Counted from the first letter of the stretch, positions 31,324 to 59,840 are shown. The stretch is 64,000 nt of DNA from Pelagibacterium sp. (GCF_035555455.1 NZ_DATMGM010000037.1:84996-148995); one strand, 5' to 3'. The notes: generated by a model not told the origin, from the letters alone. Numbers and translations: made by a program.

Positions 31324-31827
31324 ATGTTCGCGATGACCGAAGTGGCGCACGCCACGAAAGCCGACCTCTATGCCCAGTTGCGTACCCAGCTCGGCGCGCT
31401 GCTGTCAGCGGAAACCGACCCGATCGCCAATGCGGCAAACACTGCCGCGCTCCTGTTCGGTGCGATGCCCGACGTCAATTGGGCGGGATTTTATTTCCTG
31501 CGTTCAGAATCCGAGCTCGTTCTGGGACCGTTCCAGGGCAAGCCGGCCTGTGTTCGTATCGCCGTCGGCCGAGGGGTCTGCGGCACCGCGGTCGAACGGG
31601 GGACGACGATAAGGGTCGAGGACGTCCACGCCTTCCCCGGCCACATTGCCTGCGACGCAGACTCGCGGTCGGAACTGGTCGTTCCCCTCATTCGGCAAGG
31701 CAGCGTCTTCGGCGTCCTCGACCTCGACAGCCCCCGGGTGGGCAGGTTCGACGCCGATGACCAGGCCGGCATCGAGGCGCTCGCAGCGATATTTGTCGAG
31801 GCGTCAGACTGGCGAACCGAGCAATAG
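31324..31827 (+). CDS. GAF-domain protein (free methionine-R-sulfoxide reductase-like)
   Basis: NWAGFY, LGPFQGKPAC.RI..GRGVCG, V.DVH.FPGHIACD..S.SE.VVP, DLDS. Confidence 0.9.
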   Translation: MFAMTEVAHATKADLYAQLRTQLGALLSAETDPIANAANTAALLFGAMPDVNWAGFYFLRSESELVLGPFQGKPACVRIAVGRGVCGTAVERGTTIRVEDVHAFPGHIACDADSRSELVVPLIRQGSVFGVLDLDSPRVGRFDADDQAGIEALAAIFVEASDWRTEQ

Positions 31828-32078
31828 CGCCGGGGGATGCGGCCCCGCAGACCCGATCAGCGTTCGAGATAACGGGGTCGGCTTGGTAGCAGAGAAACCA
31901 AGCGAAATCCCGCTGTCCTGCGGGATGCTCCGAGCGAAATACTCAATGATGACAATATAGTGGGCATTATGGCGGAGAGTTCAGGACGAAGTCCAAACTT
32001 GCCGACAGGAGCGCGCCTGCCCGACCGACCGCCCCGCCGGAGCGTTTTTACGAAGTAAAATGAGCGCGGGGCAAATAA

Positions 32079-32092
32079 TGGCGGAGACGGAG
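32079..32092 (-). repeat. att-like core resembling a tRNA(Ser) 3' end (CTCCGTCTCCGCCA); no full tRNA present
   Basis: Ends in CCGCCA on the minus strand, followed by a hairpin (gccccgc...ttttac-gaa-gtaaaa...gcggggc). A second degenerate copy TGGCGGAGAG lies at 31970. The tRNA identity is inference. Confidence 0.55.
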
Positions 32093-32222
32093 TCCCCCAC
32101 CTTAGCGTCTCGCGTCATCGCGTAACGTCGCCAGATTGCCAGCAAACCCTCGTAAATACAAGACTTTCTCCGCGCTGATCGTCTCGGATGGTCTCGACTT
32201 ATCGCGTAAGATCGTATAATCT

Positions 32223-32243
32223 TAGGCGGGTTTATAGGCGGGT
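32223..32243 (+). repeat. Integrase arm-type sites (TAGGCGGGT x2, 12 bp period)
   Basis: Direct repeats at 32223 and 32235 just before the integrase; matching pair at 34746/34758. Confidence 0.7.
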
Positions 32244-32249
32244 GCGATT

Positions 32250-32558
32250 ATGCCAAGAGTAGCGAAAGAACTATCCGCGTTGGAGGTGAAACGCCTCTCA
32301 GAGCCGGGGATGTACGCCGTTGGGGGCGTGCCTGGGCTCCATCTTCAAGTCCTCCCCGGCGGAGGAAAGACCTGGCTGCTGCGGGTCACTATCGGGGCGA
32401 CCGCGAGCGGCAAGCAGCGCCGCAGCGAGGTCGGCTTGGGCGGGTATCCGGCGGTGAAACTACAGCAGGCCCGGGACAAGGCGCGCGAGGTCCGGGAGAA
32501 GATCGCCCAAGGCATCGACCCGATAGCGGAGCGCAAGGCTGGGCGTTCACTCCGATGA
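32250..32558 (+). pseudogene. Truncated P4-like tyrosine integrase (only the Arm-DNA-binding/DUF4102 domain)
   Basis: MPRVAKELSALEVKRL..PG..GLHLQV..GG.KTW..R...GLGGYP.V.L.QAR.KA......GIDP; stops right after this domain, with no catalytic domain. Confidence 0.85.
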
Positions 32559-32670
32559 AGGGGCCGGGCGCGGGAAGGGGTTGGCCTTCAGCCTCCTGAA
32601 ATAGATTCTTGTAGATTTACTGAATCTGATACAAAATTGCGTGAATCGTAAATTCATGCAGGGGGCGTCA

Positions 32671-33408
32671 GTGACTACCGAATTCAACTTGCCGGGCTCC
32701 TCATTCGAGGAGATTCAGAAGATTCTCAAGGGATACAGCCATGCCCCAGAGCAGGCGTCCCTCGACCAGTTGTCAAAACTGACTGGACTTCACGCAACCG
32801 TTATCAGCAGGAATAACAAGTTCCTCTCCGACATCGGCCTCATCACAGGAGGCATGAAGAAAAGCTCAACCGAGTTGGGCAAGAAACTCGGGCGTGCCCT
32901 GGACCATAAGCAGGATGCCGATGCTCAGGGCTACTGGAAAGAAGCGGTCCAAACCAATGAGAAGGTCGCTGGGCTGGTCACTACCGTGCGCATTAAAGGC
33001 GGCATGACGGAAAACGAGTTCTCTGCGCACGTGCTGTATGTGTCCGGTCAAAAGAACAACGCAGGGAACAAGACCGGAGCCCGCTGTGTCGTTGATGTCT
33101 TACTCGCAGCGAACCTTCTTCAGGAGGAGAACGGCAAACTAGTTGTGTCTTCCGCTCCCGCGAAGGAGACGTCCGCTGACCTCAAGCTCGCCGTCCTTAC
33201 GCCCACACAGCCGACGACGCAGGAGAATGGCAATGGAGGTGGAGCCGAAACCCCGCTTCCCACCCTGCCCGTGATCCCGCAAACCTCGAACCTGACGCCG
33301 CAAATCGCAATCAATATCCAGCTACACCTGCCGGAAACTGAAAATGCAGAGGTGTACGAGAAGCTGTTCAAGGCGCTCCGCGAACATCTTCTCAGTCCGA
33401 AGGAATAA
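32671..33408 (+). CDS. DUF5343-like protein (wHTH-like N-terminus, low-complexity linker, conserved C-terminal module)
   Basis: C-terminal INIQLHLPETENAEVYEKLFKALREHL resembles the DUF5343 tail. GTG start with GGGGG RBS (alternative starts 32641/32656). Confidence 0.6.
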   Translation: MTTEFNLPGSSFEEIQKILKGYSHAPEQASLDQLSKLTGLHATVISRNNKFLSDIGLITGGMKKSSTELGKKLGRALDHKQDADAQGYWKEAVQTNEKVAGLVTTVRIKGGMTENEFSAHVLYVSGQKNNAGNKTGARCVVDVLLAANLLQEENGKLVVSSAPAKETSADLKLAVLTPTQPTTQENGNGGGAETPLPTLPVIPQTSNLTPQIAINIQLHLPETENAEVYEKLFKALREHLLSPKE

Positions 33409-33411
33409 TCC

Positions 33412-33939
33412 ATGGGGCTGGAGGACTGGACCGCCCGGGCGAGCAAAGCCCGCCGCTCGGCGCATTGGGCATTGGCAAAGCACGAAAGCGCCGCCTCCCG
33501 TGTCGTGCTCTTGGAGGACTTGACCAAGAGCCTGTCGGGCACCCCGGTGGACGTACAGGACTATTTCAGCGAGGCGATTTCATGCCTTGAAAGCGAGCTG
33601 TACAGGTCCGGGATCGTCCTCGCTTGGGCGGGACACTTCCATGTGTTCTCGGAAGTCTGTTATCAGAAGCATGAAGCGGACATCCGAGCTGCGCGCCCGA
33701 AATGGACGTTCAAGGACCTTGGAGAGCTGAAAGAGGCCATCGCTGAGTCCCACTTTCTGATTGTCGCTAAAGATGTGAAGTTCACGACCAAGGCTCAGCT
33801 ACGCATTCTTGATGGTCAGCTATCGCAGCGTAACCAGTGCGCACACCCGACGCTCTACCGCCCAAGCATGAATGCGGCTATCGGGTACGTTGACGAGTTG
33901 ATCCGACAGACGTTGTCTTATCTGCCCTCGTCACCATGA
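33412..33939 (+). CDS. HEPN-domain protein (putative RNase)
   Basis: EAISC....YRSGIV.AW helix and the Rx4H motif RNQCAH(P). Confidence 0.7.
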   Translation: MGLEDWTARASKARRSAHWALAKHESAASRVVLLEDLTKSLSGTPVDVQDYFSEAISCLESELYRSGIVLAWAGHFHVFSEVCYQKHEADIRAARPKWTFKDLGELKEAIAESHFLIVAKDVKFTTKAQLRILDGQLSQRNQCAHPTLYRPSMNAAIGYVDELIRQTLSYLPSSP

Positions 33940-34670
33940 GTGGATTCTCTCTTTCCCTACTCCAAGCCGTCAGCGATTGGCAGCGCGGCGGTGATGCCAA
34001 GCAAAACAAGAAACGCGGCGAGAGGCTGAAAGAGGTGTGTGCGTCCCTTCCCGAGAAGTACCGTACTTGCTCGCTATGTTGCTTTCGACAAGTTGGTTTG
34101 CCCAAGGGCGGCGTGTGGAATCTCATTGGCGAGGATCGCCTGCCCGAGAAAATATCATCATGGACGCTCGACCTTGAAGTGGCGAAGGGGTTCAAGGGAG
34201 GCGTACCGCCCGAAGGACAGGGGTATCAGGGCGTTATCCTTTGCGTGTCTCCCCCGCCCAGCTCTGTCATCATCAATCTGCGCGAGCTATACCGTGACCC
34301 GGACTTCACTGCGGCGCTAGAACAGCACAAGGGGAGTATCACCGGCTATCACGACGGAGCCGGACGCTACGGCAACAATCAAAGCGAAGTCGTGCTTGAG
34401 GTCGCCTCTGTCACGCAGCAGGACATCTACTCGATGGGCGGTCACTCAAGCCCCTTCGAGCAACTTGTAGATGAAGCCGCAAAGCTGGCCTATGGCCCCA
34501 ACGCAACCCCAGAGCAACGCGCGGCATTGCTGTTGAAAGCAGAGCACGTCCGATCCGAAGCAGGCCCAAAATGGTTGAGCTCGGAAGCGACGCAGCGCGT
34601 GGTCATAAAGATGAAGCCTCACGCGAAGCGGCTGCGTAAGATCAAGCGTCAGCAGGACGCCGCCAAGTAA
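33936..34670 (+). CDS. ADP-ribosyltransferase-like protein (R-S-E clade)
   Basis: Ordered motifs CFRQ, ISSWT..LEVAKGF, QSEVVL; ATGA overlap with the HEPN gene. Confidence 0.6.
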   Translation: MSGFSLSLLQAVSDWQRGGDAKQNKKRGERLKEVCASLPEKYRTCSLCCFRQVGLPKGGVWNLIGEDRLPEKISSWTLDLEVAKGFKGGVPPEGQGYQGVILCVSPPPSSVIINLRELYRDPDFTAALEQHKGSITGYHDGAGRYGNNQSEVVLEVASVTQQDIYSMGGHSSPFEQLVDEAAKLAYGPNATPEQRAALLLKAEHVRSEAGPKWLSSEATQRVVIKMKPHAKRLRKIKRQQDAAK

Positions 34671-34675
34671 CAAAA

Positions 34676-34696
34676 AAGCCACCGCAAGGGTGGCTT
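34676..34696 (+). terminator. Intrinsic terminator
   Basis: aagccacc-gcaag-ggtggctt immediately after the stop. Confidence 0.7.
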
Positions 34697-34745
34697 CTTC
34701 ATCGTCTTACAGCGCCTTATCCAGTAGCGTCCCACCACTTCGGGG

Positions 34746-34766
34746 AAGGCGGGCTTTTAGGCGGGT
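34746..34766 (+). repeat. Distal integrase arm-type sites (AAGGCGGGC / TAGGCGGGT, 12 bp period)
   Basis: Same motif, spacing and orientation as 32223-32243. Confidence 0.65.
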
Positions 34767-34810
34767 TCGCCCTGAAAACCACACGGAAAACCCACTAGAT
34801 ATGGCAAAAT

Positions 34811-34882
34811 TGGCGGGCCATGCGGGATAGCGATGAGAACTATATCTACTCCATAGCCCTCCATAGCCCTCCATAGCCCTCC
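34811..34882 (+). repeat. att-like direct repeat copy 1, with 3 tandem CCATAGCCCT units
   Basis: 34811-34872 matches 43947-44008 at 55/62 nt (first 19 nt identical). Confidence 0.85.
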
Positions 34883-34963
34883 AAAATAGGAATGAGGGGA
34901 AGATAGAGCTGCATCACCGTCATCAGATGTGCGTACGGTTCTAGCTACCCGGCATGGCCCGCG

Positions 34964-37900
34964 TCAGGCCCATCCTCCAAGCTCAGCAGCGACGTTGACG
35001 AAATAGCTCGGGATATGCGCGAGCACCGCGCGTAGAATCTCCTCTTGCTGGCAAGCTGCGCGGACGCCGCCGCGGTCGACGACATTTCCCCAGACGAGAC
35101 CGAGAATGCTCGCTACATGCCTATCCGCGAACCCGGCCTCGTGAAACGCAATCGCCGCGCGATCAGTCAGGCCGTATTTAATCTGCTTTTGCAGCAGGCT
35201 GACGCCCGTGTGCAGTGCGTCGTCCAAGTCCTCGGTCAGGTCCGCTATCGATGCAACGATCATCGCAACATCGTAGCCGAAGCCGCTTTCGCACAGCGCA
35301 ACAGCATCTTCGACAGTGACATGGTCACGCCCGACCCGGACTCTTGCATCAGCCAATATGTCGAAGATCACGGCATAGGATCTGCCCGCCACCCACTCTT
35401 CAAGAGAGCGCGGAACTAAATTCTGATCGCTAATCGCCTGGATCGCCCGGGACGTGGTGAACCGGAGTGCCAACGGAGAGATTTCGGCGAATAGCCGGTT
35501 CTCTTGCACTGCGGTCTGCAGGGTTTCAAGGTTCTCAGTCAGCCAAGTTTTGAGTTCTGCAACTGCCGCCGGCGGTAGGGGGGACCGTCGAATAAGCGCG
35601 CGCTGGTCGCCATCGGTGTTGGCCGTAATCGAATCCCCGATCGATCGAAACACTTCGACGAGACGAACCCGCGTCTCCTCGTCAGCGAGGTGATAAGCTA
35701 ATGTATTAGCTGCAAGTTCACCGATCCGCGCTGCCACGTCCTCTCCCTCGGCAAAGGTCATATTGGCTACGAGGAAGGCGGCGATATTCTGGACAGCGCG
35801 GGCGCGACCTTCGATGAACCGGCGGAATTCCCGTTCGCTGATATTAGGTTGCGCCGCGAGCGCTGCGGCCACCACCTCATCTATCCGCGCGGCATCGGCG
35901 AACGCGAGGTCGAGCCAATCGGGCGGAATCTCTTGGACGATCGGCGGTTGGCGCTGCTGATACGCATCGAACAAAGCAAGGATCGAGCTGCGAGAGGGTT
36001 CAGAGTTTCGAGCATCGAGCAGTTCGGTTGCGCGGTCCCACGTCCATCGGCCGCGAAATTGCTGCCGCTGATCGTAGATGGACGGGGTCGAGAAGATGAC
36101 ACTGCCCTCGGTGTGCATCCCCGCGCGACCGGCACGCCCCATCAGATTGTGGAAGTCGCGCACCAAGATCTGTTCGCCGCCTTGGCGCGTCGATGTGATG
36201 ATCAGATATTTGAGCGGAAAATTGACGCCTTGCGCCAAGGTCGAGGTGCAAATGACGAATTTCGCCATACCTTCTTTCATGGCGTGTTCGATCGCGAGGC
36301 GGATGCCGTGCGGCGTGTCGGCGTGATGGGCGAATATTCCAAGCGCTGCCGCGCGGGTCGCTGACGCGCCGGCTCCGAGCTCGACTTCGCAAAGCGCTCG
36401 GATCTTCTCCACCTCGGCGGCGTCCGAGGCTTCAATCGGCCATTCGAGGACGACGCCGCGATCGACGATTTCGACGGCGCGCGAGCAGATCTTCGTCACG
36501 CTGTCTTTTCGGCCGCAGAAGATCGCAACGCTGCCGTTGCGCACGACGTGCAGGCCGAGGAACAGACCGACGTCACCGCCGGTTTTCTCAGGAAATCTGC
36601 GCTGGGCAGTTTCCTTGCCACGGAGTGGCAGAGCGACGTCGCTGATAATGCGAGGCACGAAATATTCTCGCTCGGCCGGATCCTCCGGTTTTACATATTC
36701 GAGTCGCCCGCGTTGGTCCTGCCAACTCGCAAAGGCGATACTTTTAGTCGTCGGTAGCAGACCCTCGGCGCCGACAACCGCATCGGCATCGCCGATCAGC
36801 CATGCAGCGACATCCGGCGCGTTGCCGATCACGGCAGAGATGAGAATGATCTGGGTTTCAGCGGGGAGCGACATGCGCAGCGACGTGAGGAGGAGTTCGT
36901 AGGTCGGCCCCCGGGTCATTCCGTCGAATTGATGTCCTTCGTCATAGATCACCAATCCGATCCTCTGGGCGAGGTCCGGAGCCCGGCGCAGCATATAGAG
37001 GAGCTTTTCGGGCGTCACGATGAGCACCGAGTCTTCGGCGAACAGCGCATCGAGTGCGAGGTCGAATTGATAGGCGTCTGATGCTTCGTCCAGGCGCACA
37101 TTCTCACCGGCAAAGGCCGTTACCAGGTCGCCCCGGATGTCGTGGCAGAGCGAACGATAGGGTGCGACGATCACTGCAAGGTGCGCTCGACCGGACAGAA
37201 AGGCCGATCGAATGATGATTTCGGTGGCGCGAGTCTTTCCGGCACTGGTCGGCATCTGAATGACTACGGAACGTCCAGCGAACACGCCAGCATCCGCGAT
37301 CCGCTGCTGAGCAGGCCAGAGTTCTATCGGAAAATGCGACTTCGCGAGCGCTAGGCGCCACGCGTCCGGCGCCAAGCCTGATGCTGTTGGCAGGATCGTC
37401 CGGGCAGAATTTCTGAGCTTGAGCGCACACAAGGCGCCAGCAATGTCGGCGTAGAGCAATTCGCGCGGTGAGCCGGATCGGTGGAAATACTCGCGGATTC
37501 TGCGGCACGCTTCGGCAATGCCATCCGCCCCGGCCTCGAAGTTGAAATAGCCGGCTAGCGCCTGGAGAAGCTCAGTCGTCGCCGCTTGATGAGCATGGGC
37601 CGCCTCGGTCGGAGCGAAGCTGTTCTTGAGGATGCTGTATACGAGATGACCAAGCCCGCCCGCGAGGTCGAGGCTCGGCTCCGTCATGTGCCGAATGATT
37701 ACCGTCGCGCTGCCGACATTCCCGGCGATGTAGTATGCCGCTGCGCACAGGAGTGAAAATTCGGTGTCTAAGTCGGCATCGAGCTGCGCGTTCAAATATG
37801 CATCGAAGAAAACTGAGGAAAAGCGTAGCACATCTTGCGGGTCCTCATCCAACTCGTCCCAGCCGGGCGGTTGAGGAAGCGCGGCCGGTGCCACTCCTGC

Positions 37901-38083
37901 AACATTGAGCGTATCTGCGACGGCGGCCGCAACATCTCCCAAGATGCCGATTGCCAATGAGAAGAGTAGCGACGGGTCGCGCGGCAACGCATTGAAGTCC
38001 GCTGGCGCGACGCGGAATTCGTGCATCTTTGCTCGTGCTCGCGCGGTGGATAGGATGGTGAGCGCGGTCGCCTCAGGCCTCAT
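34964..38083 (-). CDS. hamB: Hachiman HamB SF2 (Ski2-like) helicase
   Basis: MPTSAGKT, TPEK, DEGH, SAVI, TSTLAQGVNFP, GRAGRAG; overlaps the upstream DUF1837 gene. Confidence 0.85.
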   Translation of the reverse strand: MRPEATALTILSTARARAKMHEFRVAPADFNALPRDPSLLFSLAIGILGDVAAAVADTLNVAGVAPAALPQPPGWDELDEDPQDVLRFSSVFFDAYLNAQLDADLDTEFSLLCAAAYYIAGNVGSATVIIRHMTEPSLDLAGGLGHLVYSILKNSFAPTEAAHAHQAATTELLQALAGYFNFEAGADGIAEACRRIREYFHRSGSPRELLYADIAGALCALKLRNSARTILPTASGLAPDAWRLALAKSHFPIELWPAQQRIADAGVFAGRSVVIQMPTSAGKTRATEIIIRSAFLSGRAHLAVIVAPYRSLCHDIRGDLVTAFAGENVRLDEASDAYQFDLALDALFAEDSVLIVTPEKLLYMLRRAPDLAQRIGLVIYDEGHQFDGMTRGPTYELLLTSLRMSLPAETQIILISAVIGNAPDVAAWLIGDADAVVGAEGLLPTTKSIAFASWQDQRGRLEYVKPEDPAEREYFVPRIISDVALPLRGKETAQRRFPEKTGGDVGLFLGLHVVRNGSVAIFCGRKDSVTKICSRAVEIVDRGVVLEWPIEASDAAEVEKIRALCEVELGAGASATRAAALGIFAHHADTPHGIRLAIEHAMKEGMAKFVICTSTLAQGVNFPLKYLIITSTRQGGEQILVRDFHNLMGRAGRAGMHTEGSVIFSTPSIYDQRQQFRGRWTWDRATELLDARNSEPSRSSILALFDAYQQRQPPIVQEIPPDWLDLAFADAARIDEVVAAALAAQPNISEREFRRFIEGRARAVQNIAAFLVANMTFAEGEDVAARIGELAANTLAYHLADEETRVRLVEVFRSIGDSITANTDGDQRALIRRSPLPPAAVAELKTWLTENLETLQTAVQENRLFAEISPLALRFTTSRAIQAISDQNLVPRSLEEWVAGRSYAVIFDILADARVRVGRDHVTVEDAVALCESGFGYDVAMIVASIADLTEDLDDALHTGVSLLQKQIKYGLTDRAAIAFHEAGFADRHVASILGLVWGNVVDRGGVRAACQQEEILRAVLAHIPSYFVNVAAELGGWA

Positions 38084-38888
38084 CGGCTGCCCTCTCGTAA
38101 AGCGTATGTACGAGCTTCATCAATGACGGTCCGCGGATAACCAGAAGGCGCAAATTCTCTTGGTTAAAATGAGCCGCACCGTTGGTCGCCGCCATGTCGG
38201 TCTCGGCGAAGACGGCCTCGTCGAGAATGGCGGCCGCTCCGTTGATCCGGCGAAAGGGTCGGTCGGCCTCGTTTTGAAAGCGCTCGACCTTTCGGGCATC
38301 GCCCATTTCGCCCCGATCGAAGAAACGGCGTTTAATCGCATTGAGGCTCATGCCCTCGCGAAGTCTGTCCTTTACGCTGTCATCGATCGCATCCTGGAGC
38401 CGGTTTGCGTCGGACGCAGACATGCCAGATTTGGACTCGAAGATAAAAAGCTCGTCGGCCGGACCGGGGTTGTCCTCGTTCGCGAACTTGAACCCGATAA
38501 CATCGCAACCCTTTGTCGAGTCATTTCGGTTCCAGCGATCCTGGTAGCGCAACTCGCGTGGGCACCAATATCCTAGGAAATATTCGATGAAGTCGGCGAC
38601 GACGATCTCGCCAAAATCTCCTGATCGAAGGCTCGGGCCGGGTGCCACCTTCGCATCGGGGAAGAGAATGGTCCTTAGATAATCGGGATGGCCGAGTCCC
38701 GTTCCGCCAGCCATGAACGGTAAATCGGCATCGGCGATGTAGTGGTTGCGGAAATGCCGAGCCCAGTTTGAAAGGATTTCAGCGTCATCTTGCGGATTTA
38801 GTTCCCATATCTCGATTTCACGGCCACACGCCGTTGCTTGACGCTCTCCAGTATCGACCAGCCAGTTCAGATAGCTCGGTGTCGCCAC
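38073..38888 (-). CDS. hamA: Hachiman HamA (DUF1837 nuclease-fold protein)
   Basis: GDFGEI, KGCDVIG, FESKS (PD-(D/E)xK-like); GTG start with GGGGGAGG RBS; adjacent to the helicase. Confidence 0.8.
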   Translation of the reverse strand: MATPSYLNWLVDTGERQATACGREIEIWELNPQDDAEILSNWARHFRNHYIADADLPFMAGGTGLGHPDYLRTILFPDAKVAPGPSLRSGDFGEIVVADFIEYFLGYWCPRELRYQDRWNRNDSTKGCDVIGFKFANEDNPGPADELFIFESKSGMSASDANRLQDAIDDSVKDRLREGMSLNAIKRRFFDRGEMGDARKVERFQNEADRPFRRINGAAAILDEAVFAETDMAATNGAAHFNQENLRLLVIRGPSLMKLVHTLYERAADEA

Positions 38889-39052
38889 GGTATGCCTCCC
38901 CCAAGGCCGATAAATAATATGGCGTCGATTCGAAGCCATCTTTGCAACGCAGAATGCGCGCGTTTCTTACGAAGTATAATTTAATTCAGATTTCATAATT
39001 AGTTCTCAGCAATACCATCGCTTCGGTTTATTTATAATTTGTAGAAACCTCC

Positions 39053-40504
39053 TCACATGAACAACCGATAAGGATAAACATTCCGGGGTAGGTCCGGGAC
39101 GTTCGCTATTGTGCGGGCCAGTTTCTGCGAATAGCGAATGCTAACTGGCACTGGGTCGTAGAGCGCGTCGTTATTCCAATCCATCTTCGTGAGGGCCAAC
39201 ACCTCATGGGCGGTGAGTTCAAGTGGCCCGCTGCCGGCATGACGGATCAGTTGTAGCGGCCGGGGAATGCTCTTCTTGCCCTGATAGTAATCGCCTTTGG
39301 TTGAGACCTCGGGAGCATTGCCCGCCACCCATATTAAGGCAGAATTGCCCGTGCGGATCACCATCGTCCCGCGCGGCACGGGAAACCCCGAAGGTTTTGA
39401 TGGCGGTTTCTCTACGCCCGACTTGATGAGCCAGACGCCGCGCCAGCACGATGCCGAACTGACCTCGACGCACTCTATTTCCGCTACGCCGGTAAGCGCA
39501 TCTAACGCGCCCTCGATTTCAGCGTCCTTGAACGCGGTCGTTTTGTGAATGACCATGCGTTTTGGTAGGTTGCCGCCATTGCGTCCCTGATAGAGTTCCA
39601 GGCTACGGGCGAGGACCGCGCGCATGTCGTCGCGACTTAGAAAGGGGTTCCGGCGGGCTTCGGCCACGTCGGCCACCGGGTCTCGCGCCTCGAACGCGAC
39701 GAACTGCATGCCGCCACCGTCCATGTCGAAGACCTGCGAGCAGCACGTCACATAATGCGCGTCTTGTTGGTCACCGCGCAGGGCATAGGCCAACCCGATG
39801 TAGGCGGTGTCCGCCGGCACACCTTTTAGCGGCGCGAGCTTCCATGGCGTGCCCGCAGCCTTCACGTACAGTGCGGTTGAAAGACGCCAAGCGAGCGAGG
39901 CCTTAAAGCTGAAGTTAAAGACGCGATCGTTCAGAACCTGGGTCGGAATATTATACTTGGCGCCCAGAGCCTTCAGCACGTCGTGTGCGTCAAAGAATTT
40001 TCCGCGTGTCGCCGTGTCCCAGTTGTCGGGAAAGTGGACCAGCACAACGTCGAACTCGTTGCGAACGGTGTCGAGGCGGCGGAGCGCGGCATCCATTGCG
40101 AGGTATAGGCGATGCTGCACGTTGCCGTCACCCGGTAGTTGGTCGAGGTGTTCAGGCCACTTGATGTGCGCGCTCGCTGGCGCGGGATCGAGCGACACGC
40201 GGAACAGGCGCTCGAAACCGGGATATTCCGGCACATATTCTGATCTGTCGGAAGGCCGATGCACGTCGCGCAACAGCTTCATCAGATCGCCACGACGATG
40301 AAAAGCGCTCTCCGGGCCAACCGTCGCGATTCGAATGCGGGGAGTGTATCCGCTAAACGATCCTTTCGAATACGGCCCGAAGTTCAGGAGGCCGCGCAAT
40401 GGATGGACATCTACCTGGGTGGCATCGGATGGGGAAAACGACAGGTCCGGCTCATCCAAGAGCGTGAATGGCGGCAGCTCGGTTAGGGCTGGGTTCGCCA
40501 TCAT
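39053..40504 (-). CDS. Short prokaryotic Argonaute (MID-PIWI, no PAZ)
   Basis: PLRGLL.FGPYS, HD.LKA....IPTQV, LYVKAAGTPWKL, YIGLAYA, RMVIHKTT.F, L.LTKMDWN, PV...YS. Confidence 0.92.
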   Translation of the reverse strand: MMANPALTELPPFTLLDEPDLSFSPSDATQVDVHPLRGLLNFGPYSKGSFSGYTPRIRIATVGPESAFHRRGDLMKLLRDVHRPSDRSEYVPEYPGFERLFRVSLDPAPASAHIKWPEHLDQLPGDGNVQHRLYLAMDAALRRLDTVRNEFDVVLVHFPDNWDTATRGKFFDAHDVLKALGAKYNIPTQVLNDRVFNFSFKASLAWRLSTALYVKAAGTPWKLAPLKGVPADTAYIGLAYALRGDQQDAHYVTCCSQVFDMDGGGMQFVAFEARDPVADVAEARRNPFLSRDDMRAVLARSLELYQGRNGGNLPKRMVIHKTTAFKDAEIEGALDALTGVAEIECVEVSSASCWRGVWLIKSGVEKPPSKPSGFPVPRGTMVIRTGNSALIWVAGNAPEVSTKGDYYQGKKSIPRPLQLIRHAGSGPLELTAHEVLALTKMDWNNDALYDPVPVSIRYSQKLARTIANVPDLPRNVYPYRLFM

Positions 40505-42384
40505 CTGCTCCTGTCGAAGTAGGTATGGTGATGCGACGGTCGGCTAAACCCTGTAACGGGTGACACCTTGAACACGGCATCAATGCCAGTGCCGTCTTCG
40601 AGTCCGAAAGCGCTTCGAAGCGTGCCGCCCGTCTCCGTCAGAAGCTGGGCCCAGGCCCCAATAATGCTGGCCCAATTCCTATTATAGCGCGGAGCCCATC
40701 GTTCCCGGCGCCAGTCACCGGCAGGATCACCTCGTCGCTCGGCTTGGATGCCCATTTCAGCCGCAGCTTCTTGCGCGACCAGATCCTCCGAACCTTCCGT
40801 TTGTGGAGTGTCTTGTCGGGGCAACTGGACGAACGTGTAAGGCTCGAAGCCGCACCACCACTTTCCATCGACCTGTTCCAGCTTGAGCTGGACACCCTCC
40901 TGAAACGGGAAGCCGAGCTTGGGCACTGTGCCAAACAGACTGGTGCCGTAGGCATCGCGCAGCCGGGATAGGGTTTGTTGAAGACGCCGCGTTCGATCAG
41001 GATCATCGCCGTCGCGCGGTGTTGCAACGACGAGCGAATGGCCGGAACGCCTGTAGCGTGGGATGAGCGGGCGCTGCCGGGCGAGAGATCGCACGAGCGT
41101 GTCGTAGAGCAATCCCGTCGCCCAGCTATCAGCGACCGGATCTAGGTCGATCGTTCCAGCGAGCGATGGGCCAAGCGGAGCCAAGGCATCCAGGATTTCC
41201 TGGTCACGCCCGAACACCGCTAGCTCACGCCCCAAAGCGGCCGCCGTCGCCCGACATCCCTTCGCCTTGAAGATCTCGCGCACCTCTGCCGATGTTGTCG
41301 GTTGGCTCAACCTGATGCGCCTGGCCGCGGTCGGCATCGATTGAAGCAGAATTGCCGAATAGCGCAGCACCGGGAATGCGCGGGCTTTGGCATTTGGAAT
41401 CTGAACGGGTATGAGACGCGGCGTAGGTCGCCCTTCCATCACCCGATCAAGAAGCGGCTTGGGTAAATCGGTTACCTTGATGATATCGGCAGCCAGTTCG
41501 TCAAAGGTCGCGCACTCAACGACGGCCACATCCACGCCAGCCGCTGCGGCCCGACCCAGAAATTCGATCACTGCGGGCAGCAAGCGCGACGCCGACGAGG
41601 CAAGCCAATAAAGTCCGTTGGGAAATGGCGACGGCGCGTCGAGAACCTCGTTCAGAGCCTCCATGATCGAAGCGTCACGTCCGCTATAGCCGACGAAGAT
41701 CATTCCGAAGCGTTGGCCGGACTCCACCAACACATGCCGCATCCGGTTGTCCTGTTCCTCCAGTTCCGATCCCGCATTCTTAATTGCGATCGATTGGTAA
41801 TCACCGTGGAGCTTAGCGACTAATGGCCAGTCCGATTCATTGAGGCACCGCATGGCACGGTCGGCGGAATCGATCGCAGCCACAGTCGGGCGGTTCTGGT
41901 CGCCCACTGGCAGAATCCCATTTGCCGAATGCGCCGACTCCTCGATGAGCGGATCGAAGTTCGTCGTGAAAACGCAATCGACCTTGCCGGCAGCCATCAG
42001 ACTGCCAAGTACCTTGTGTCCAAAACAGGGAGTGCCCTTGGAGATCGCATCGTCGATATACTGTCGGCGATGCCGGGCCTCTGGATAGACCGCTTCGAAG
42101 GCCTTGGCATATTCTGTAGGATCACCGTCAGGTGGCAACAGCGAGTTTTGGCGGAAAAAGGCATCGATCCTGTCGATCCAGATCGGGTCAGCGGTATCGA
42201 TCTCGCGCTTTGACAGGTTCGTTTCGCGGCAAAAGATTTGCGCCTTGAAATCGCGGATCATGGCATAGCCCGTCGGAATGCCGGAGGCGGCCGATGCGCC
42301 TGCGCCGAGGAACCAGGCCACAAGATTTGGCCTGAGATCGAACGCTGTCGTGAATTGTGCGGCGGAGATAGTTTTTATCGGCAC
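40501..42384 (-). CDS. SIR2-APAZ effector (SPARSA system with the short pAgo)
   Basis: FLGAGAS..SGIP, TTNFD, KLHGD, GYSGRD sirtuin-like motifs; C-terminal APAZ-like region; 4 bp overlap with pAgo; GTG start. Confidence 0.88.
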   Translation of the reverse strand: MPIKTISAAQFTTAFDLRPNLVAWFLGAGASAASGIPTGYAMIRDFKAQIFCRETNLSKREIDTADPIWIDRIDAFFRQNSLLPPDGDPTEYAKAFEAVYPEARHRRQYIDDAISKGTPCFGHKVLGSLMAAGKVDCVFTTNFDPLIEESAHSANGILPVGDQNRPTVAAIDSADRAMRCLNESDWPLVAKLHGDYQSIAIKNAGSELEEQDNRMRHVLVESGQRFGMIFVGYSGRDASIMEALNEVLDAPSPFPNGLYWLASSASRLLPAVIEFLGRAAAAGVDVAVVECATFDELAADIIKVTDLPKPLLDRVMEGRPTPRLIPVQIPNAKARAFPVLRYSAILLQSMPTAARRIRLSQPTTSAEVREIFKAKGCRATAAALGRELAVFGRDQEILDALAPLGPSLAGTIDLDPVADSWATGLLYDTLVRSLARQRPLIPRYRRSGHSLVVATPRDGDDPDRTRRLQQTLSRLRDAYGTSLFGTVPKLGFPFQEGVQLKLEQVDGKWWCGFEPYTFVQLPRQDTPQTEGSEDLVAQEAAAEMGIQAERRGDPAGDWRRERWAPRYNRNWASIIGAWAQLLTETGGTLRSAFGLEDGTGIDAVFKVSPVTGFSRPSHHHTYFDRSR

Positions 42385-42396
42385 AGGCTCCCCCTT

Positions 42397-43578
42397 TCAG
42401 GCCGTCGTGGGGAGCGGGTCGGTTCCCTCGCTCAAGATGGCGAGATATCGCCGGTAACTGAACACGCGCCCCCGTTTGCGCCCGGTGATTTCTTCGACGA
42501 TGCCGAACCGTTCCAGATCGGCGAGCGCCGCATTGACCGTGGGGGCTGAGAGCCCTGTTTGCTGAACGAGTTGGTTGGCCGTCAGGAACGGGTTTTGCTG
42601 AAAAAGATCGTGGATACGCAGCGCGGAGCCTGCCCGGTCGCTCTCTGTCGTGATCCGCTCGCGGTCTTCCTTGAACAGATCGACAATCCGGGTTGCTGCT
42701 TCGAATGCCTGATTGGCCGTATCCGCAACACCGGCAAGGAAGAAATCGAGCCAGGCTTCCCATGCCCCGTGCTCTCGCACCTCCTGAAGCAGGCGGTAAT
42801 AGTCGGCGCGATGCGTTTTAAGGTAGAGGCTCAGATAGAGCAGCGGCTTGCGCAGCACACCGTTGACGCACAGGTACAGCGTCACCAACAAGCGACCGAT
42901 CCTGCCGTTTCCATCCAGGAACGGGTGGATGGTCTCGAATTGGACGTGCAGCAACCCTGCCTTGATCAGGGCGGGCAGACGCGAGCCGTCCTCGTGCATG
43001 AAGCGCTCAAGCGCATCGAGACAAGCATCCATCTCGGTCGGCGGTGGCGGCACGAACAGTGCGTTGCCTGGACGTGAACCACCGATCCAGTTCTGAGACC
43101 GCCGAAACTCGCCGGGATTTTTCGTGCCGCCGCGCCCGCTTTGCAGCAGTCGCTCATGCATCTCGCGGATCAGACGTAATGACAGCGGAAGATCTTCCAG
43201 ACGCTCCAGCCCATACATCATCGCATCGACATAGTTCGATACTTCACGGATGTCGTCGATCGGTTGGCCGGCCTGCGCCTCGGTTTCGAAGCGGAGCAGG
43301 TCCGAAAGGGTGGACTGCGTTCCTTCGATCTGGGACGAGAGGACTGCTTCCTTCCTTACATACATGTAGAGGAACAGCTCCTGACGCGGGAGCAACATCG
43401 TGATCCCGTCCAGACGACCTAACGCGCGTTCGGCCAGGCCTAGCCGCTCCAGAAGGGCCAGCACGTCGATCGGCGGTTCGGGCGGCAGTGAGGGCGGCAC
43501 GAAGGCGCGCACGATTTCTCCCGCAACAGGGGTCTCGACAAAGCGGCCTAGCCGGAGGCTGAATGCTGATTCGGACAT
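42397..43578 (-). CDS. Fic-domain protein (class II, with C-terminal wHTH)
   Basis: Canonical HPFLDGNGRIGR; N-terminal inhibitory SSQIEG. Confidence 0.92.
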   Translation of the reverse strand: MSESAFSLRLGRFVETPVAGEIVRAFVPPSLPPEPPIDVLALLERLGLAERALGRLDGITMLLPRQELFLYMYVRKEAVLSSQIEGTQSTLSDLLRFETEAQAGQPIDDIREVSNYVDAMMYGLERLEDLPLSLRLIREMHERLLQSGRGGTKNPGEFRRSQNWIGGSRPGNALFVPPPPTEMDACLDALERFMHEDGSRLPALIKAGLLHVQFETIHPFLDGNGRIGRLLVTLYLCVNGVLRKPLLYLSLYLKTHRADYYRLLQEVREHGAWEAWLDFFLAGVADTANQAFEAATRIVDLFKEDRERITTESDRAGSALRIHDLFQQNPFLTANQLVQQTGLSAPTVNAALADLERFGIVEEITGRKRGRVFSYRRYLAILSEGTDPLPTTA

Positions 43579-43602
43579 GCTCCCACTATGCGAGAGCGGC
43601 CT

Positions 43603-43632
43603 TATTTAAGCAATTGGCTTTTGGCTTAAATA
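43603..43632. promoter_or_regulatory. Inverted repeat upstream of fic (possible autoregulatory operator)
   Basis: TATTTAAGC-N12-GCTTAAATA, with a third half-site CTTAAATAA at 43656. Confidence 0.4.
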
Positions 43633-43946
43633 GGCGTTGAACTAAAGTAAGTGCTCTTAAATAACGGTCGACAACATTATGGGCGCGTACACGCAAAAGG
43701 TTCGTAGCAGCATTTTTCCCGCCTTCAATGACGGAACCCCTGCCGATCGCATTCGCCCTTTGGCCCGTCGCCGACAACACGGTCTTTCACGAACAACCCA
43801 TCGAGATCATCATCGCTATAGACGCTGATATGTCGGGCTGTAGCGTAGAAACGGCGGTGATCGACGGTGCGTATGCTACTTGGTGACGTTGCGGCCATCA
43901 GCGGTGATCGGCGGCAATATCGCGCTATAGAGGGCAATCGGCGGGA

Positions 43947-44008
43947 TGGCGGGCCATGCGGGATACCGATGGGCACGATACCTACTCCATAGCCCTCTAT
44001 ATCCCTCC
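43947..44008 (+). repeat. att-like direct repeat copy 2
   Basis: 55/62 identity to 34811-34872; an inverted TATAGAGGGC at 43926 pairs with GCCCTCTATA at 43992. Confidence 0.85.
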
Positions 44009-44145
44009 TAAATAAGGACTTCTGCTTTGCGCCTCCATTCTTGCCACTCGCTTACGGGAACCGTGGTGACGCTCCAAGCGGAAAGCTCTGCCGTAATGAC
44101 AGAGTTCGGGACCGGGCTGTCCAAGGATGCTCGTCAGCCTATTGA

Positions 44146-45633
44146 TTATTGAGGCGCACCGCGCTTTGCCTCATGATCGTGTTGAACTCGGCCTATGCCA
44201 TCCTTTCTTTGAGATGGCGGTCTGGAGATCTGTGTCAGGAGGATGATTTCTTCGCTGGGATTTTCAGTCGAGGGGTACGCAACGCCATTCTGGACGAAGC
44301 CATGATGCTTGAGGATGCGTTGTAATTTCTCATTCGCCTTCCGCGTCGTCGCGTAAACGAGTTTGGCACGCGCCGCATCTAGCAGGCTCGTGATGAGGTT
44401 CCGGGTCTGCTTTCCGCGATGCTTTTGCTCGACGAAGAGCCATCCTATTTCACGCGTGAAGTCACCAGAATTGGCCGTAGCCTGCGCCTTCTGAAAAACA
44501 CCGTTTCGGTAAGCGAGAGCCGGTTTCTTAAGAGCCCCGACGCCAACAATTGCCTTCTCATATCGAATGAAGCCCAAGACATCCGCCCTCTTGAGACGAG
44601 CCTCAATGCCATCCGCGACTTCACCTCCCTTCTTTACGAGGAGCGCGAAATCATCGAGTTCGTTTTTGGTACATTCGCCGGGCTTCTTGATTTGAACCGA
44701 GTATTTCTCCTTCTCGACCTTGTCGACGGCGATCTTGAGCGCGCCCTTGAAAATTGGGTGGAGATCTTCCTTCGTCAGCTCTTCTGCGGCCTTACCCTTA
44801 GCATTGATCGTGAAGTTGGCGGTGCCTTTCGCGATGACGTCCAGAAGCTTTCTATCGTTTAGAAGTTGGTCGACTAACTCGTCACGAAGCTTGGTCCGCT
44901 CACGCTCCGTGACGGGATCATCGCGCTTGTCCTGACGGAAAATCGTTCGAAGTCTCGAGGCAATATCGTTGGTTTCTGAGTTGATGCGAGTGACGTAAGC
45001 TTGGATGGTGTCGAGAGCGCTTTCGGTATCGCCAAGCTTGCTGTCAGCCCAGCCGAGTTGATCGGCCATGCTCTGGATGCTGACATCTAAAGAAGCTTCG
45101 AGCTGACCGAGTTCCTTTGTTATACGGCCTGCTGCGGCCTCAAACCGCTCGGCGAATGCGCGCGCTTCGCTTTCGAGGAAGATTTTCAGAAGCTCGGTTG
45201 GATGCAGTGCGCGATTACGTCGCCCATCACGCGTGCAGTAGATACCCTTGGGAGTGCAGTGTGGCTTCGTGGCGCTGCTCGGGATATCGATTCGCAAAAA
45301 CGGCTTGCCGTCGTCATTTTCGATGCTGACATCGATAGCGACCGGAGGGATGCACCCCAAAGCTTTGTTGGCTATCTGGAGTATCGTTCCATCGCCAACA
45401 TCACATCCCACCACGACGCCGACCTGTGCGCCTCCATCGTTGGCGCGTTCGTCGACGCCGGCAAGGATGGCTCCGCCACCCGCGTTGGCGAACGCGACCA
45501 AGTCTTCAGCAGACACTCCGTCAGGGCCGCGCTTGAAGTCCGCGCGATCACCTTCCCCTGCCTGCAGCAGAGTTGCGGTGTCCGCAGTTACTGTCCTAGT
45601 GATCTTATTTGAAGGCATTTCTAACACTAGCAT
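44146..45633 (-). CDS. AlbA_2 (Schlafen-like) domain - coiled coil - GNAT fusion
   Basis: GEGDRADFK, LVAFANAGGG.IL.GVDE; helical middle; C-terminal EIGWLFVEQKHRG...YATTR..N..LQRIL..HGF. Start may be 45618. Confidence 0.75.
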   Translation of the reverse strand: MLVLEMPSNKITRTVTADTATLLQAGEGDRADFKRGPDGVSAEDLVAFANAGGGAILAGVDERANDGGAQVGVVVGCDVGDGTILQIANKALGCIPPVAIDVSIENDDGKPFLRIDIPSSATKPHCTPKGIYCTRDGRRNRALHPTELLKIFLESEARAFAERFEAAAGRITKELGQLEASLDVSIQSMADQLGWADSKLGDTESALDTIQAYVTRINSETNDIASRLRTIFRQDKRDDPVTERERTKLRDELVDQLLNDRKLLDVIAKGTANFTINAKGKAAEELTKEDLHPIFKGALKIAVDKVEKEKYSVQIKKPGECTKNELDDFALLVKKGGEVADGIEARLKRADVLGFIRYEKAIVGVGALKKPALAYRNGVFQKAQATANSGDFTREIGWLFVEQKHRGKQTRNLITSLLDAARAKLVYATTRKANEKLQRILKHHGFVQNGVAYPSTENPSEEIILLTQISRPPSQRKDGIGRVQHDHEAKRGAPQ

Positions 45634-45706
45634 ATCGCGGTCTTCGAAAACACTGGAAGCTCCGCATTTTGCCTGAACTTCCTGCGTTTTCCGAACGCAG
45701 GCTCCG

Positions 45707-48700
45707 TCAGTGATCGTAGATCACGCCGATGATCGGCCGAGCATATGCCATGATCGGCATGTTCGGTGCTCCCTCAATGCTTTCGGTCGCAATGACGACA
45801 GATTCGCCGAGACCGCCGATCGTCTCAAATTGGCGCAGATACGGGAAGGCGGAGGTCACTTGAGATCCGACCCGCTTCAGGATGCTCGTGCCGTCATCCA
45901 GAGTTAGCGCGACGACCTGTCCCTCAAGCGCCGACAATTCCCCCGCCGTCAGCACTTTTCCTCCCAGTATCGTCTGACCCGGAAGCGCAAGTGGAACCGC
46001 GCTTTCTTCCCGCACCCGATAAGCCACCTCTACTTTGGCGAGGATCGGATCGCTTTCGATTTCGATGGCCTCTTCACGGCCATGGGGCGGCGGCAGATGA
46101 CTGAGCAGAAGGCCTACGACACGATGCACATCAATACCATGATCCTCGAAGGCTAGGGTAGGACGACTTTTCCTTGGGTCGGTCGCTTCGGCAGCGAGTG
46201 AAAAGCCCTCGCCATTTCTGGGACGCAGGAGACGACGGGCATAAGCCTGCTTTCCACGCCGAGCGACGACCAAACTATGGTCGCGCGCTGGCGAAGGCTC
46301 CGCCTCGACGATAGCTACGGATCCAGCCGGCATCGCGAAACCCATCGTGTCGTGCCTTATGTAAAACAGGGCCTTATCGTCGAACCAACTGCTCGAAAAA
46401 ATTTCGCACTCGGCTACCTGGCTTTCTCCCAACGGGAGATGGCCGGTGAACGCCGCGATATCTTGTCTGACGGGAATGCTGAACGCCGGTACCTTGACCG
46501 GGATTAACGTCACGACATTAGTTGGTAGCGCTTCGGTCAGTGGCTCACGCCAGCGATAGCGGCGGAATTCGCCGTGAACGCGCTCGACGCCAGCACGGAG
46601 ACGCTTCAGGTCGCCATCAACACGCTCGACATCAGCATAGCTGATCGACGCCTTGTCGTGGTGTGAAGTGTTCAGGATGCGCCGTGTGTCGGCGCCAGCA
46701 GTCATCGCCTGATCGTTGCAAAAATCATTCAACACCGGGCTGCGGAACAATTCATTCGAGCGACCGCTGACCAATGCTTTCAGTCGGTCGAACAGCGGCA
46801 CCAGTGTCGGTGCCTTGGTCGGCGCGGAGTGTGCAGGATAGGCAGGATCATCAAAGAGGTCACCGAGTCTTGCTTCGATGAAGATCCTGGCTTCGTTCGC
46901 ATAGTCCTGCGCGTAAGATGCGACGTCGGGATTTGCGATGAATAGCTGACGTTTCCGGTCCAGTTCATCGACAGCAAGCGACGTCTCGAGCGTGGCACGC
47001 GAGATATTCACCGGGTGGACGGACCGATGCGCGATCAAATCGGCGGGCCGGGATTCCTGTACCAGCGTCCGCGCAAAGCTGCGATCATGTGTCGTGGTGA
47101 CAATCTGAGCGCCGTCACTCGCGAGTTGGGTAAACGCTCGGGCTAGACGCTGTCGATTATCATAATCGAGCAGATCCTGCGGGTCATCGAGCACCAAGAT
47201 CGTTAGGCCACCACTGGTCTTCAGCACATATTCCCGGAACGCGAGGTAGAAGGCCATCAACCCCGCGCGCAGCGCAGAGGAATTTGACACGTGTTGGGCA
47301 GGAGCGCGAACAATACCTCGCCCCACTTGAATGTCGATGACGCCCTGTGCACTCATCCCTGAGGCTAGTGGCTTAGGCGCAAACGACGTGGCGTTCTGGT
47401 AGATCTGATCACGCCAATATTCCGCGCGATCATGGAGTTGGCGCCGCAAGCCCTCCACTTGCTCCTGTGCCAGCGCGCCGATGGGAACAATTTCGTCTAG
47501 CGCCTTGGCACACTGGCCACAAGCCTCGATCCGCGCAAGTTTTGTCTGCCGTGACTTGAGCGAAGCGTCGAGCCGGTCTGTGAGGGTGATCGCGGCCGAG
47601 ATAGGTGCTACTCCTTTCACGATCTCGTCAAGGCGACTGAGGCTTCCGCCGATAGAAGCGGCATGTTCCTGCATCCCCACAACGACTTCCCCTGCTGCCG
47701 TGCCTCCACCATTGCGAACCTTCTCTAATGCAGACCGCAAGGCACCAGGATTTGCTGCCATCCACTCGGCAAAGGCCAAGGCGCGTTCGATTCTGGCGAT
47801 CATGATCGGGAGCTTGCCAACTTCGGCGACCATATTTTCCGGCAGGGCCTCGCTCTCCGGTTCTTCAAACGGCGGCAGCGCAGCCGTTGCCGCCTCAACC
47901 AGCTCTTTGGCTAGAGGTTGTAACGCCCGCAGCGTGCCGCGGAAGCCGTCGGTGGCGAACAGTTCTTCTTTGAGTCCCGTATCGAGCAGTGCGCCAGGGT
48001 GCTTTGGCAGATCGCGCTCCATCTCTGCGCGAAGCGCTTCCGGCAAGTCGCGCGACAATGTTCCCGACCATCGACGTTCCCACTGGGCGATCGTCTGCGC
48101 GACGAGTTCGCCATCGTCGCGCACTTGTCGTATATGTTCCGCAACTGCCATGTTGGTATCGGGATCGATCACGCCCGCAAGTGAATGCCGACAGACGGCG
48201 CAATGGTCTTCCTGCGTCTCCCCCTGTTCGGCCATCCAGGTCGCGACGCGCGCATAGAGCTGGGTTCGACGGGCCAGCGTCGGATTGTCCGCAAGTTCCG
48301 AAAGCATCGATGCCTCGGTTCGCAGTGTCTTGAGCAAATCGCGAGCCTTCGCGATTGCCTCAGCGTCCAGCACGAGTTTCCCGATCCGCTCGATGCTGGG
48401 AAGCGTGCGCACCATCCGGAGTTGCTCGATCGCCGGCCCGATATTCTCCTCCAGGTCCTTGCGTTGGCTGGCGACCTCCGGATCAAAACTATCTCCCAAA
48501 ACCTCCCGTGCGTCGGCGAGCCCCTCGGCCTTAAGTTTCTCGAAATGGATCTGAAGTCGAATAACGACTTCCGCTGCACTCTCGTCTGCTGCGTTGGGAA
48601 GAGCATCTGCCGGTCTCATCGCCGGAAACTCCTCGATCCGCGCTTCGAGGTCACGCCTGTGCTCGGCAAAACCGTCGTCGATCCGATCGAGCTCATTCTT

Positions 48701-49651: not shown

Positions 49652-49707
49652 CTCACCTCCCCCTAGCTCAGCGCTTACCAGATTTTCGCAGCGATACTGA
49701 CCTTTGT

Positions 49708-49959: not shown

Positions 49960-49974
49960 TGATCTGTAAAGACG

Positions 49975-51096: not shown

Positions 51097-51105
51097 GGAA
51101 AATGC

Positions 51106-59824: not shown

Positions 59825-59840
59825 CACTGGGATCTCAGCA

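Follow-up and report, generated by a model that had tools for sequence, protein, structure and literature searches.

An integrase-less defence cassette, probably stacked in tandem on a serine-recombinase ICE at a tRNA gene in Pelagibacterium

Tandem accretion, in which integrative and conjugative elements (ICEs) stack with cis-mobilizable elements (CIMEs), is established for ICEs that use tyrosine integrases, with ICESt1 and ICESt3 of Streptococcus thermophilus as the model (PMC5704250). Here we describe a 9.1 kb block of anti-phage genes in Pelagibacterium sp. that lies between two 62 nt direct repeats, R1 and R2. The block is probably a decayed, integrase-less element of a large serine recombinase (LSR) family that has been stacked in tandem on an LSR ICE at the same tRNA gene, with R1 and R2 as distal junctions of that family. 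It was found in a 64,000 nt stretch, here called the window, that corresponds to positions 84996–148995 of contig C37 (NZ_DATMGM010000037.1) in a 3.1 Mb assembly of 70 contigs (GCF_035555455.1). Unless a contig or genome is named, coordinates are those of the window.

As in S. thermophilus, the cassette and a related ICE share one target gene in tandem, and the composite is expected to be mobilized in cis. Its attachment (att) sites are of the type used by the co-resident ICE, and there are no recombinase or conjugation genes inside it; as a decayed element of the same family, it would match the CIME definition (PMC5704250). Unlike the CIMEs of ICESt1 and ICESt3, it is associated with an LSR, alphaproteobacterial hosts, a target at the CCA end of a tRNA gene and three anti-phage systems, and the att sequence that has been kept is also the detached 3' end of a recombinase gene.

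Three further systems are relevant. ICEMlSymR7A of Mesorhizobium has a Trb-type type IV secretion system (T4SS) and is controlled by FseA, QseM and RdfS; its integrase is the tyrosine recombinase IntS, its target is tRNA-Phe, and RdfS is its recombination directionality factor (RDF) (PMC8627217, PMC11963761). The ICE described here shares with it a DUF2285 FseA-like protein, an HTH_17 RdfS-like protein, TraF, a lytic transglycosylase, a relaxase, TraG and Trb genes, but has an LSR at tRNA-Ser. Serine recombinases are recorded, without detail, on one ICE and five integrative and mobilizable elements (IMEs) of Mesorhizobium (PMC8627217), and no description of an element end formed by a split open reading frame (ORF) was found in the available text of the Mesorhizobium papers (PMC8627217, PMC11963761). 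In mycobacteriophages with integration-dependent immunity, attP lies in the repressor ORF and integration removes a C-terminal degradation tag (PMC3694055). Our locus is similar in that attP is in an ORF, integration changes a C-terminus and the detached tail is short with a hydrophobic end. It differs in that the split gene encodes the recombinase, a serine integrase on an ICE, rather than the repressor, and in that the integrated form is not truncated but gains a variable antisense-tRNA tail. Finally, the Islander concept describes tRNA-targeted genomic islands with displaced 3' tRNA fragments (PMC4383910). As in Islander islands, the target tRNA gene stays intact, the far end is marked by a tRNA-like fragment and elements become arrayed in tandem at one tDNA, but here the tRNA identity covers just ~6–9 nt (TGGCGG…) and the remainder of the repeat is element-owned and coding.

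The repeats and the defence genes between them

R1 (34811–34872) and R2 (43947–44008) are in the same orientation and identical at 55 of 62 positions (89%), with their starts 9136 bp apart, exactly as a sequence-only reading of the window had proposed. The first 19 nt, TGGCGGGCCATGCGGGATA, are the same in both (2 matches against 0.01 expected), and the likeness extends by ~12 nt, to about 34893 and 44019, if a 10 nt indel is allowed. That reading had counted three 10 bp units in R1 and two degenerate ones in R2. The three CCATAGCCCT units of R1 were confirmed, at 34851, 34861 and 34871, while R2 has a single exact CCATAGCCCT at 43987 followed by a degenerate CTATATCCCT. Two units are the norm for the subfamily to which R1 and R2 belong, and the third unit of R1 looks like slippage. 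The units sit within or right behind a conserved coding frame for the C-terminal tail of the recombinase. As R1 and R2 are the only copies in the whole assembly, the repeat is not dispersed within this genome, the concern that had been raised about an att role. The TGGCGG start that they share is meaningful because it represents the CCA end and discriminator of a tRNA on the other strand.

Other identities for the repeat were considered and rejected. ARAGORN and Rfam returned nothing at R1 or R2, so neither is a tRNA or tmRNA gene; the host tmRNA is located on C58, and its tag is unrelated to the repeat at the DNA level. An apparent acceptor-stem pairing in R1 is not kept by relatives. On C20, 17 nt that match R1 lie close to a tyrosine integrase, but they belong to a bolA-like ORF and the match is no better than chance (E about 2). 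The repeat is not the C-terminus of an upstream chromosomal gene either, as the upstream frames are not conserved.

The five genes between the repeats are all on the minus strand and all belong to defence systems. Hachiman is represented by HamB (34964–38083; PADLOC 1209 bits, Pfam DEAD) and HamA (38073–38939; PADLOC E = 4e-108, Pfam HamA). A SPARSA-type short prokaryotic Argonaute (pAgo) gene (39053–40504; PADLOC pAgo_I, E = 2e-213) is accompanied by a SIR2-APAZ gene (40501–42384; PADLOC Aga_SIR2, E = 2e-224, Pfam SIR2_2). The fifth encodes SoFic, a Fic/DOC protein with a winged-helix domain (42397–43578; PADLOC E = 4e-127, Pfam Fic_N, Fic and HTH_24). Pfam and PADLOC revealed no recombinase domain and no conjugation gene among the five. 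The earlier description of this DNA as holding only defence genes and no recombinase therefore stands for the genes, but not for 43842–43946, where relics of serine-recombinase 3' ends are present. A 520 nt stretch in a genome from a different genus (G020, C1:2404707–2405226) is 96% identical to part of the short pAgo gene, which suggests a recent exchange or a fragment. The full-length pAgo system of another genome (G050) is just 68% identical to that in the window.

The element family and its recombinase gene

When R1 was used as a BLAST query, 8 further genomes of the family proved to have one copy each, and the motif is present in 9 of the 243 family genomes. The pattern GAGAACTAYNNNTACNCYATAGCCCTC, with up to 2 mismatches allowed, matched in 37 of 401 genomes of the order, representing 25 of 149 genera, and the reversed-pattern control gave 1 match. 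All copies have the same layout, TGG followed by 21 variable nt and a conserved block. R1, read as an element end (34811–34876, plus strand), matches the family consensus block with 0 mismatches. Its crossover TGG, the CCA codon, is at 34811–34813, its P' half-site at 34811–34834 and its conserved tail block at 34835–34861, and its frame, WRAMRDSDENYIYSIALHSPP, stops at 34874–34876. R2 (43947–44015, plus strand) is a second, degenerate element end with 5 mismatches in the 28 nt block, and its frame, WRAMRDTDGHDTYSIALYIPPK, stops at 44013–44015. Both repeats thus belong to a family of element ends, which bears out the suggestion that they are att-type sequences.

The start of the motif mirrors the 3' end of the local target tRNA. 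In G130 it is TGGCGCACC, matching tRNA-Arg(CCG) 2.6 kb away; in G092 it is TGGCGGG, matching tRNA-Ser(TGA) 1.4 kb away; and in locus L036 it is TGGCGGAGGGAGAGGGAT. In three genomes (G183, G226 and G169) the motif is 2–8 kb upstream of homologues of the 59–64 kb part of the window, in the same orientation and with variable cargo between. In five others (G604, G034, G566, G565 and G587) an LSR gene is found 13–45 kb downstream of the motif, on the same strand and in one contig. The 3' ends of these five LSR genes read …GAAG/TGGCGG… into tRNA-type sequence, which ARAGORN calls as tRNA-Ser in all except G034. As the motif lies upstream of the backbone and the LSR gene lies downstream and reads into a tRNA, we conclude that the motif is the tRNA-distal end of LSR elements. 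G226 was rejected as a complete reference ICE; it is decayed, ends with an LSR fragment and lacks TraG and Trb genes. The motif in G130, a genome without a TrbI match, is an orphan. A 29-residue fragment from the N-terminal part of an LSR, 69% identical to residues 123–151, lies 25 nt after it (L018 9903–9989, minus strand) and points to a rearranged relic.

In the Pelagibacterium genome, the other end of the ICE is on contig C42, which carries the sole TrbI of the genome. Its genes encode TrbE (cut by the contig end), TrbL, TrbG and TrbI, all confirmed by Pfam, a LysR regulator, a major facilitator superfamily (MFS) transporter, a GNAT acetyltransferase, a winged-helix protein and an LSR. The 571 aa LSR (C42:37642–39357) has Resolvase (PF00239), Recombinase (PF07508) and Zn-ribbon (PF13408) domains. 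Its frame, …SGPKWRRERDSNPR…, passes straight into a tRNA-Ser(GGA) gene on the opposite strand, where the W codon, TGG, is the CCA end. No match to the tyrosine recombinase family PF00589 was found on C37 or C42. As the LSR abuts tRNA-Ser(GGA) and there is no tyrosine recombinase, the ICE uses the LSR and sits at tRNA-Ser(GGA), and the window is its tRNA-distal side. The sequence-only reading had proposed looking for a tRNA beyond the window, and one is indeed adjacent to the LSR end of the ICE. With an LSR at one end, a relaxase, coupling protein and T4SS, and defined attL and attR at a specific target, the element has the features of an LSR ICE. A location at tRNA-Ser(TGA) on C9 was rejected, as that tRNA gene is in an ordinary chromosomal context.

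The winged-helix gene (C42:39354–39743; L070 6354–6743, minus strand; Pfam HVO_A0114/MarR-like) shares 4 nt with the beginning of the LSR gene and is a candidate regulator or directionality factor. A second LSR gene, cut by the start of C14 (C14:1–890, L071), is 60% identical over the C-terminal half and reads …SSVLKWRTRHDSNV and a stop into tRNA-Arg(CCG). No tRNA-distal end motif for this second LSR was found in the assembly.

A search for LSR homologues returned >4900 matches, ~130 of which were inspected. Nearly all of those inspected end in KWR followed by antisense-tRNA residues (xxDSNPR…), with very different tail lengths, so the ORF always continues past the crossover. Database entries of the family (P0001–P0134) range from 536 to 933 aa. 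Automated annotation lets the ORF run on across the antisense tRNA and further, so the residues that follow KWR in these entries are an artefact of integration.

On the element side of the crossover, 42 of 43 distinct motif instances are open from TGG through the block, encoding WRAxxD(D/E)xE(N/H)YxY(A/S)IAL. The first stop is 0–5 codons past the block in 40 of the 43 and immediate in 16, with TAA, TAG and TGA all represented; the other two frames are mostly open for >20 codons. Synonymous variation in the block is concentrated at the third positions of TAY, GCN and NCY codons. A search seeded with common tail variants found P0121 (L069), an intact 554 aa LSR in a 2.9 kb public contig, that ends …GLKWRAEADETENYTYAIALQSGG and a stop (short form, …KWRAEADETENYTYAIALQSGG and a stop; DNA, …CTGAAGTGGCGGGCCGAAGCCGACGAAACAGAGAACTACACCTACGCTATAGCCCTC…). 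From this fused ORF we conclude that the excised (attP) form, or a tandem junction, encodes an LSR with the tail, and that integration detaches the tail. The attP crossover is within an ORF, one feature of an integration-dependent C-terminal switch. Joining the LSR of the Pelagibacterium genome to R1 in silico gives …KWRAMRDSDENYIYSIALHSPP and a stop, and joining it to R2 gives a degenerate …KWRAMRDTDGHDTYSIALYIPPK and a stop.

The tail, …DENYxYAIAL, resembles ssrA tags such as ANDENYALAA of Escherichia coli, though in resemblance only, and the tag of this host is ANDNYAEARLAA. This acidic and hydrophobic tail may have a regulatory role.

The tandem junction and competing explanations

Immediately upstream of R2 are two relics of serine-recombinase 3' ends. 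Relic 1 (43842–43884, plus strand) reads SVETAVIDGAYATW, with a degenerate core TGG followed by TGA, and holds an exact 16-mer, AGCGTAGAAACGGCGG, from the 3' end of the C14 recombinase gene at a similar spacing from TGG. Relic 2 (43890–43946, plus strand), a P-arm-like module, reads …SAAISRYRGQSAG and shares its frame with R2's TGG. It matches the 3' end of the C42 recombinase gene at 21 of 24 positions, has ~45 nt in common with G030 and includes a module, AATCGGCGG…, that was found again at other loci; it is 27 nt short of intact 3' ends (…GGAGGGAAATCGGCGGGAATCGGCGTTCCC…GAAG/TGG). The upstream module also precedes internal motif copies in other genomes and is missing from the leftmost copies, namely R1 and the first copy in G604. 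Relics upstream of R2 together with a module before internal copies make up the layout that a tandem array predicts, and the relic sequences indicate tandem accretion followed by decay.

Arrays with different cargo are present elsewhere. In G618 (L066, G618:C28:683001–698000) three copies are 2.4 and 3.2 kb apart, with blocks that start at 2513, 4943 and 8131. Each has the conserved upstream module, the two small cassettes hold MFS transporters and a hydrolase rather than defence genes, and a HEPN/PDC-M34B protein is encoded after the third copy. The two copies in G604 (L067, G604:C6:2668001–2688000) are 9.8 kb apart. Between them are IS66 and IS3 transposases, a DRT8 reverse transcriptase and a 745 aa HerA-like ATPase, and a type I restriction-modification system follows the inner copy. 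In G565 two copies are 1.7 kb apart. Cargo thus differs between homologous repeats in related genomes, a comparison that had been put forward as a check on the cassette.

Direct observations here cover membership of the family, the architecture of the elements, the coding frame, the relics and a single ORF in attP form; from these we infer the order of events in the array. Most probably, R1 and R2 are two copies of a tRNA-distal junction, each consisting of a crossover TGG, a 24 nt P' half-site and a 27 nt conserved block, of an ICE/IME family that integrates at the CCA end of tRNA genes via its LSR. The ICE would begin in the window, pass through the conjugation genes on C37 and C42 and end with the intact LSR gene running into tRNA-Ser(GGA). 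The LSR gene would span attP, with the repeat supplying the last ~20 residues, joined to the gene only on excision. On the excised circle, the LSR would end …K-W-R-A-M-R-D-S-D-E-N-Y-I-Y-S-I-A-L-H-S-P-P, using R1, and integration would swap this native tail for antisense-tRNA residues. The array would read flank, P' of element 1, cargo, the 3' end of LSR-1 joined via the core to P' of element 2, ICE, LSR and tRNA. Deletion of the second element's own LSR gene, except for the 3'-end relics next to R2, would have left a CIME-like cassette. As R1 has 0 mismatches to the consensus block and R2 has 5, R1 was probably the end used in the last transfer, in which case the cassette travels in cis with the ICE. 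Of the origins suggested by the sequence-only reading, that of two related elements inserted in tandem is the one that best fits the family motif ends and the LSR relics at R2.

Several observations weigh against this interpretation. Contiguity of C37 and C42 was deduced from gene content, and the assembly lacks trbC, trbD and the 5' portion of trbE at the presumed join. No other species of the family was found to have the whole 9.1 kb composite; only its separate components turned up there. Both relics next to R2 are short and, in small search spaces, reached E-values of 5e-4 and 0.13. P0121 is the only attP-form protein among 5.8 billion proteins, its 2.9 kb contig may represent a tandem junction instead of a circle, and a protein search with the tail of R1 itself matched no attP-form protein. 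Several internal junctions elsewhere have a conserved in-frame TAG 4 codons before the W, which closes the frame upstream at those junctions. At several codons of the block, a rare ATA among them, the third position is invariant, making DNA-level selection, e.g. for RDF binding, possible besides coding.

The block from R1 to R2 could instead be a true mobile cassette that is excised and reinserted in trans by the ICE recombinase, making the ICE end an integron-like capture platform with P-arm-like module, core and P' as its site. The internal copies in G618 (three), G565, G604 and G030, as well as R2, share an upstream module that ends 3–4 nt before TGG; a strict match to it is found in 6 of the 43 instances against 1 of 170 control windows. 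The cassettes are also small (1.7–9.8 kb, 1–9 genes) and their cargo differs. We nevertheless consider this unlikely, as R1 has no upstream module, the module is most simply an LSR 3' end minus 27 nt, and the composite was not found elsewhere in the family. Moreover, serine integrases normally pair attL with attR, a canonical combination that R1 (attL-like) and R2 (attP-like) do not form. The features of an integron are also missing: there is no IntI-type gene, 31500–45000 contains no Rfam or structured-element match and the sites are linear coding remnants.

More doubtful still is a reading of the conserved block as a signal in DNA or RNA, such as a recombinase or RDF site, a terminator or a promoter, in which the open frame is incidental, though R1 and R2 would remain element ends. 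The invariant third positions are in GAG, AAC, TAC, ATA and CTC, GCTATAGC is palindromic and a stop is found just upstream of the W at some internal junctions, all of which would suit a signal. Against it, the frame is open in all but one of the 43 instances and closes shortly past the block in all but three, with all three stop codons in use, and synonymous changes occur at GCN and TAY codons. The spacing from TGG keeps the LSR frame, and P0121 is a fused ORF in real DNA. The block is 24–51 nt from the crossover, and a typical serine-integrase half-site is shorter than that distance.

Least probable is the arrangement that the sequence-only reading had in mind, tyrosine-integrase arm and core sites with the CCATAGCCCT array bound by RdfS and excision by the ICE integrase and RdfS: the ICE does encode HTH_17 (RdfS-like) and DUF2285 FseA-like proteins, a P4-type integrase stump is 2.3 kb to the left of R1 and a 10 bp period is one helical turn of DNA, but the 102 aa stump, the only tyrosine integrase nearby, lacks a catalytic domain, an LSR rather than a tyrosine recombinase occupies the opposite end in this ICE as well as in five related elements, and the first CCATAGCCCT unit alone is conserved family-wide, inside a coding frame with a stop, the extra units being subfamily-specific.

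Flanking regions and significance

To the left of R1, chromosomal genes extend to 31827. They are followed by a relic of ~110 nt, element X (31969–32078, plus strand), which starts with TGGCGGAGAG, the reverse complement of a tRNA-Ser 3' end. Element X has a faint likeness to a whole tRNA-Ser, with a weak alignment to tRNA-Ser(GGA); it was not called as a tRNA and matched no Rfam family. It is ~72% conserved in G221 (L035) and G082 (L017), at an island junction each time, and in G082 a motif of the R1/R2 type directly follows it. Element X is the oldest junction relic at the site. Adjacent to it is TGGCGGAGACGGAG (32079–32095, plus strand), a displaced 3' fragment of tRNA-Ser(GCT) type in which 14 nt are identical to the 3' end of tRNA-Ser(GCT) in G587, TGGCGGAGACGGAGGGATTCGAAC. 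A small island of 2.7 kb follows, with the truncated P4-type tyrosine integrase (32250–32558, plus strand, 102 aa), of which the arm-DNA-binding domain alone remains (Pfam Arm-DNA-bind_3, E = 4e-21), and three cargo ORFs without Pfam matches (32641–34670, plus strand). Just inside the ends of this island, paired AGGCGGG-N5-AGGCGGGT repeats that are 87% alike (32224–32246 and 34747–34769) are consistent with arm sites of the truncated integrase.

To the right of R2, the ICE cargo (44146–57419) includes, by Pfam, genes for an AlbA_2 protein and a 1358 aa SMC/RloC-like ATPase, dinB, an SRAP gene, and imuA-like, imuB and dnaE2 genes. The backbone (57744–64000, plus strand) encodes a methyltransferase, the DUF2285/RovC (FseA-like) protein, the HTH_17 RdfS-like protein (60597–60869), which is a candidate RDF, a RepA-like protein, a C5 methyltransferase and a DUF2840 protein. 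Beyond the window, the backbone continues to the end of C37 with TraF, lytic transglycosylase, relaxase, TraG and TrbB; the last three were identified from translations and have homologues in G226.

Three features are combined here: integration splits the LSR gene, the conserved tail that it detaches is the recognizable end of the element, and defence cassettes are stacked. The tandem arrangement explains how three anti-phage systems that lack their own recombinase can ride on a conjugative element. The signature TGG, 24 nt, then GAGAACTAY…ATAGCCCTC delimits a common, undescribed class of alphaproteobacterial ICEs, IMEs and relics, and LSR family entries in databases carry artefactual antisense-tRNA tails. 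A bolder proposal, drawn from sequence and offered only tentatively, is that integration switches the C-terminus of the LSR itself throughout this widespread alphaproteobacterial family. Only the excised circle would then encode the acidic, ssrA-like tail (…D-D-E-N/H-Y-x-Y-A-I-A-L), which might serve for proteolysis or altered directionality, while the detached tail and half-site modules could double as landing pads that stack integrase-less, often defence, cassettes onto ICEs. If true, this would be a serine-recombinase analogue of a cassette-capture platform. The split LSR gene also raises the testable idea that the activity or stability of a serine integrase may depend on its integration state, via a tail encoded across attP.

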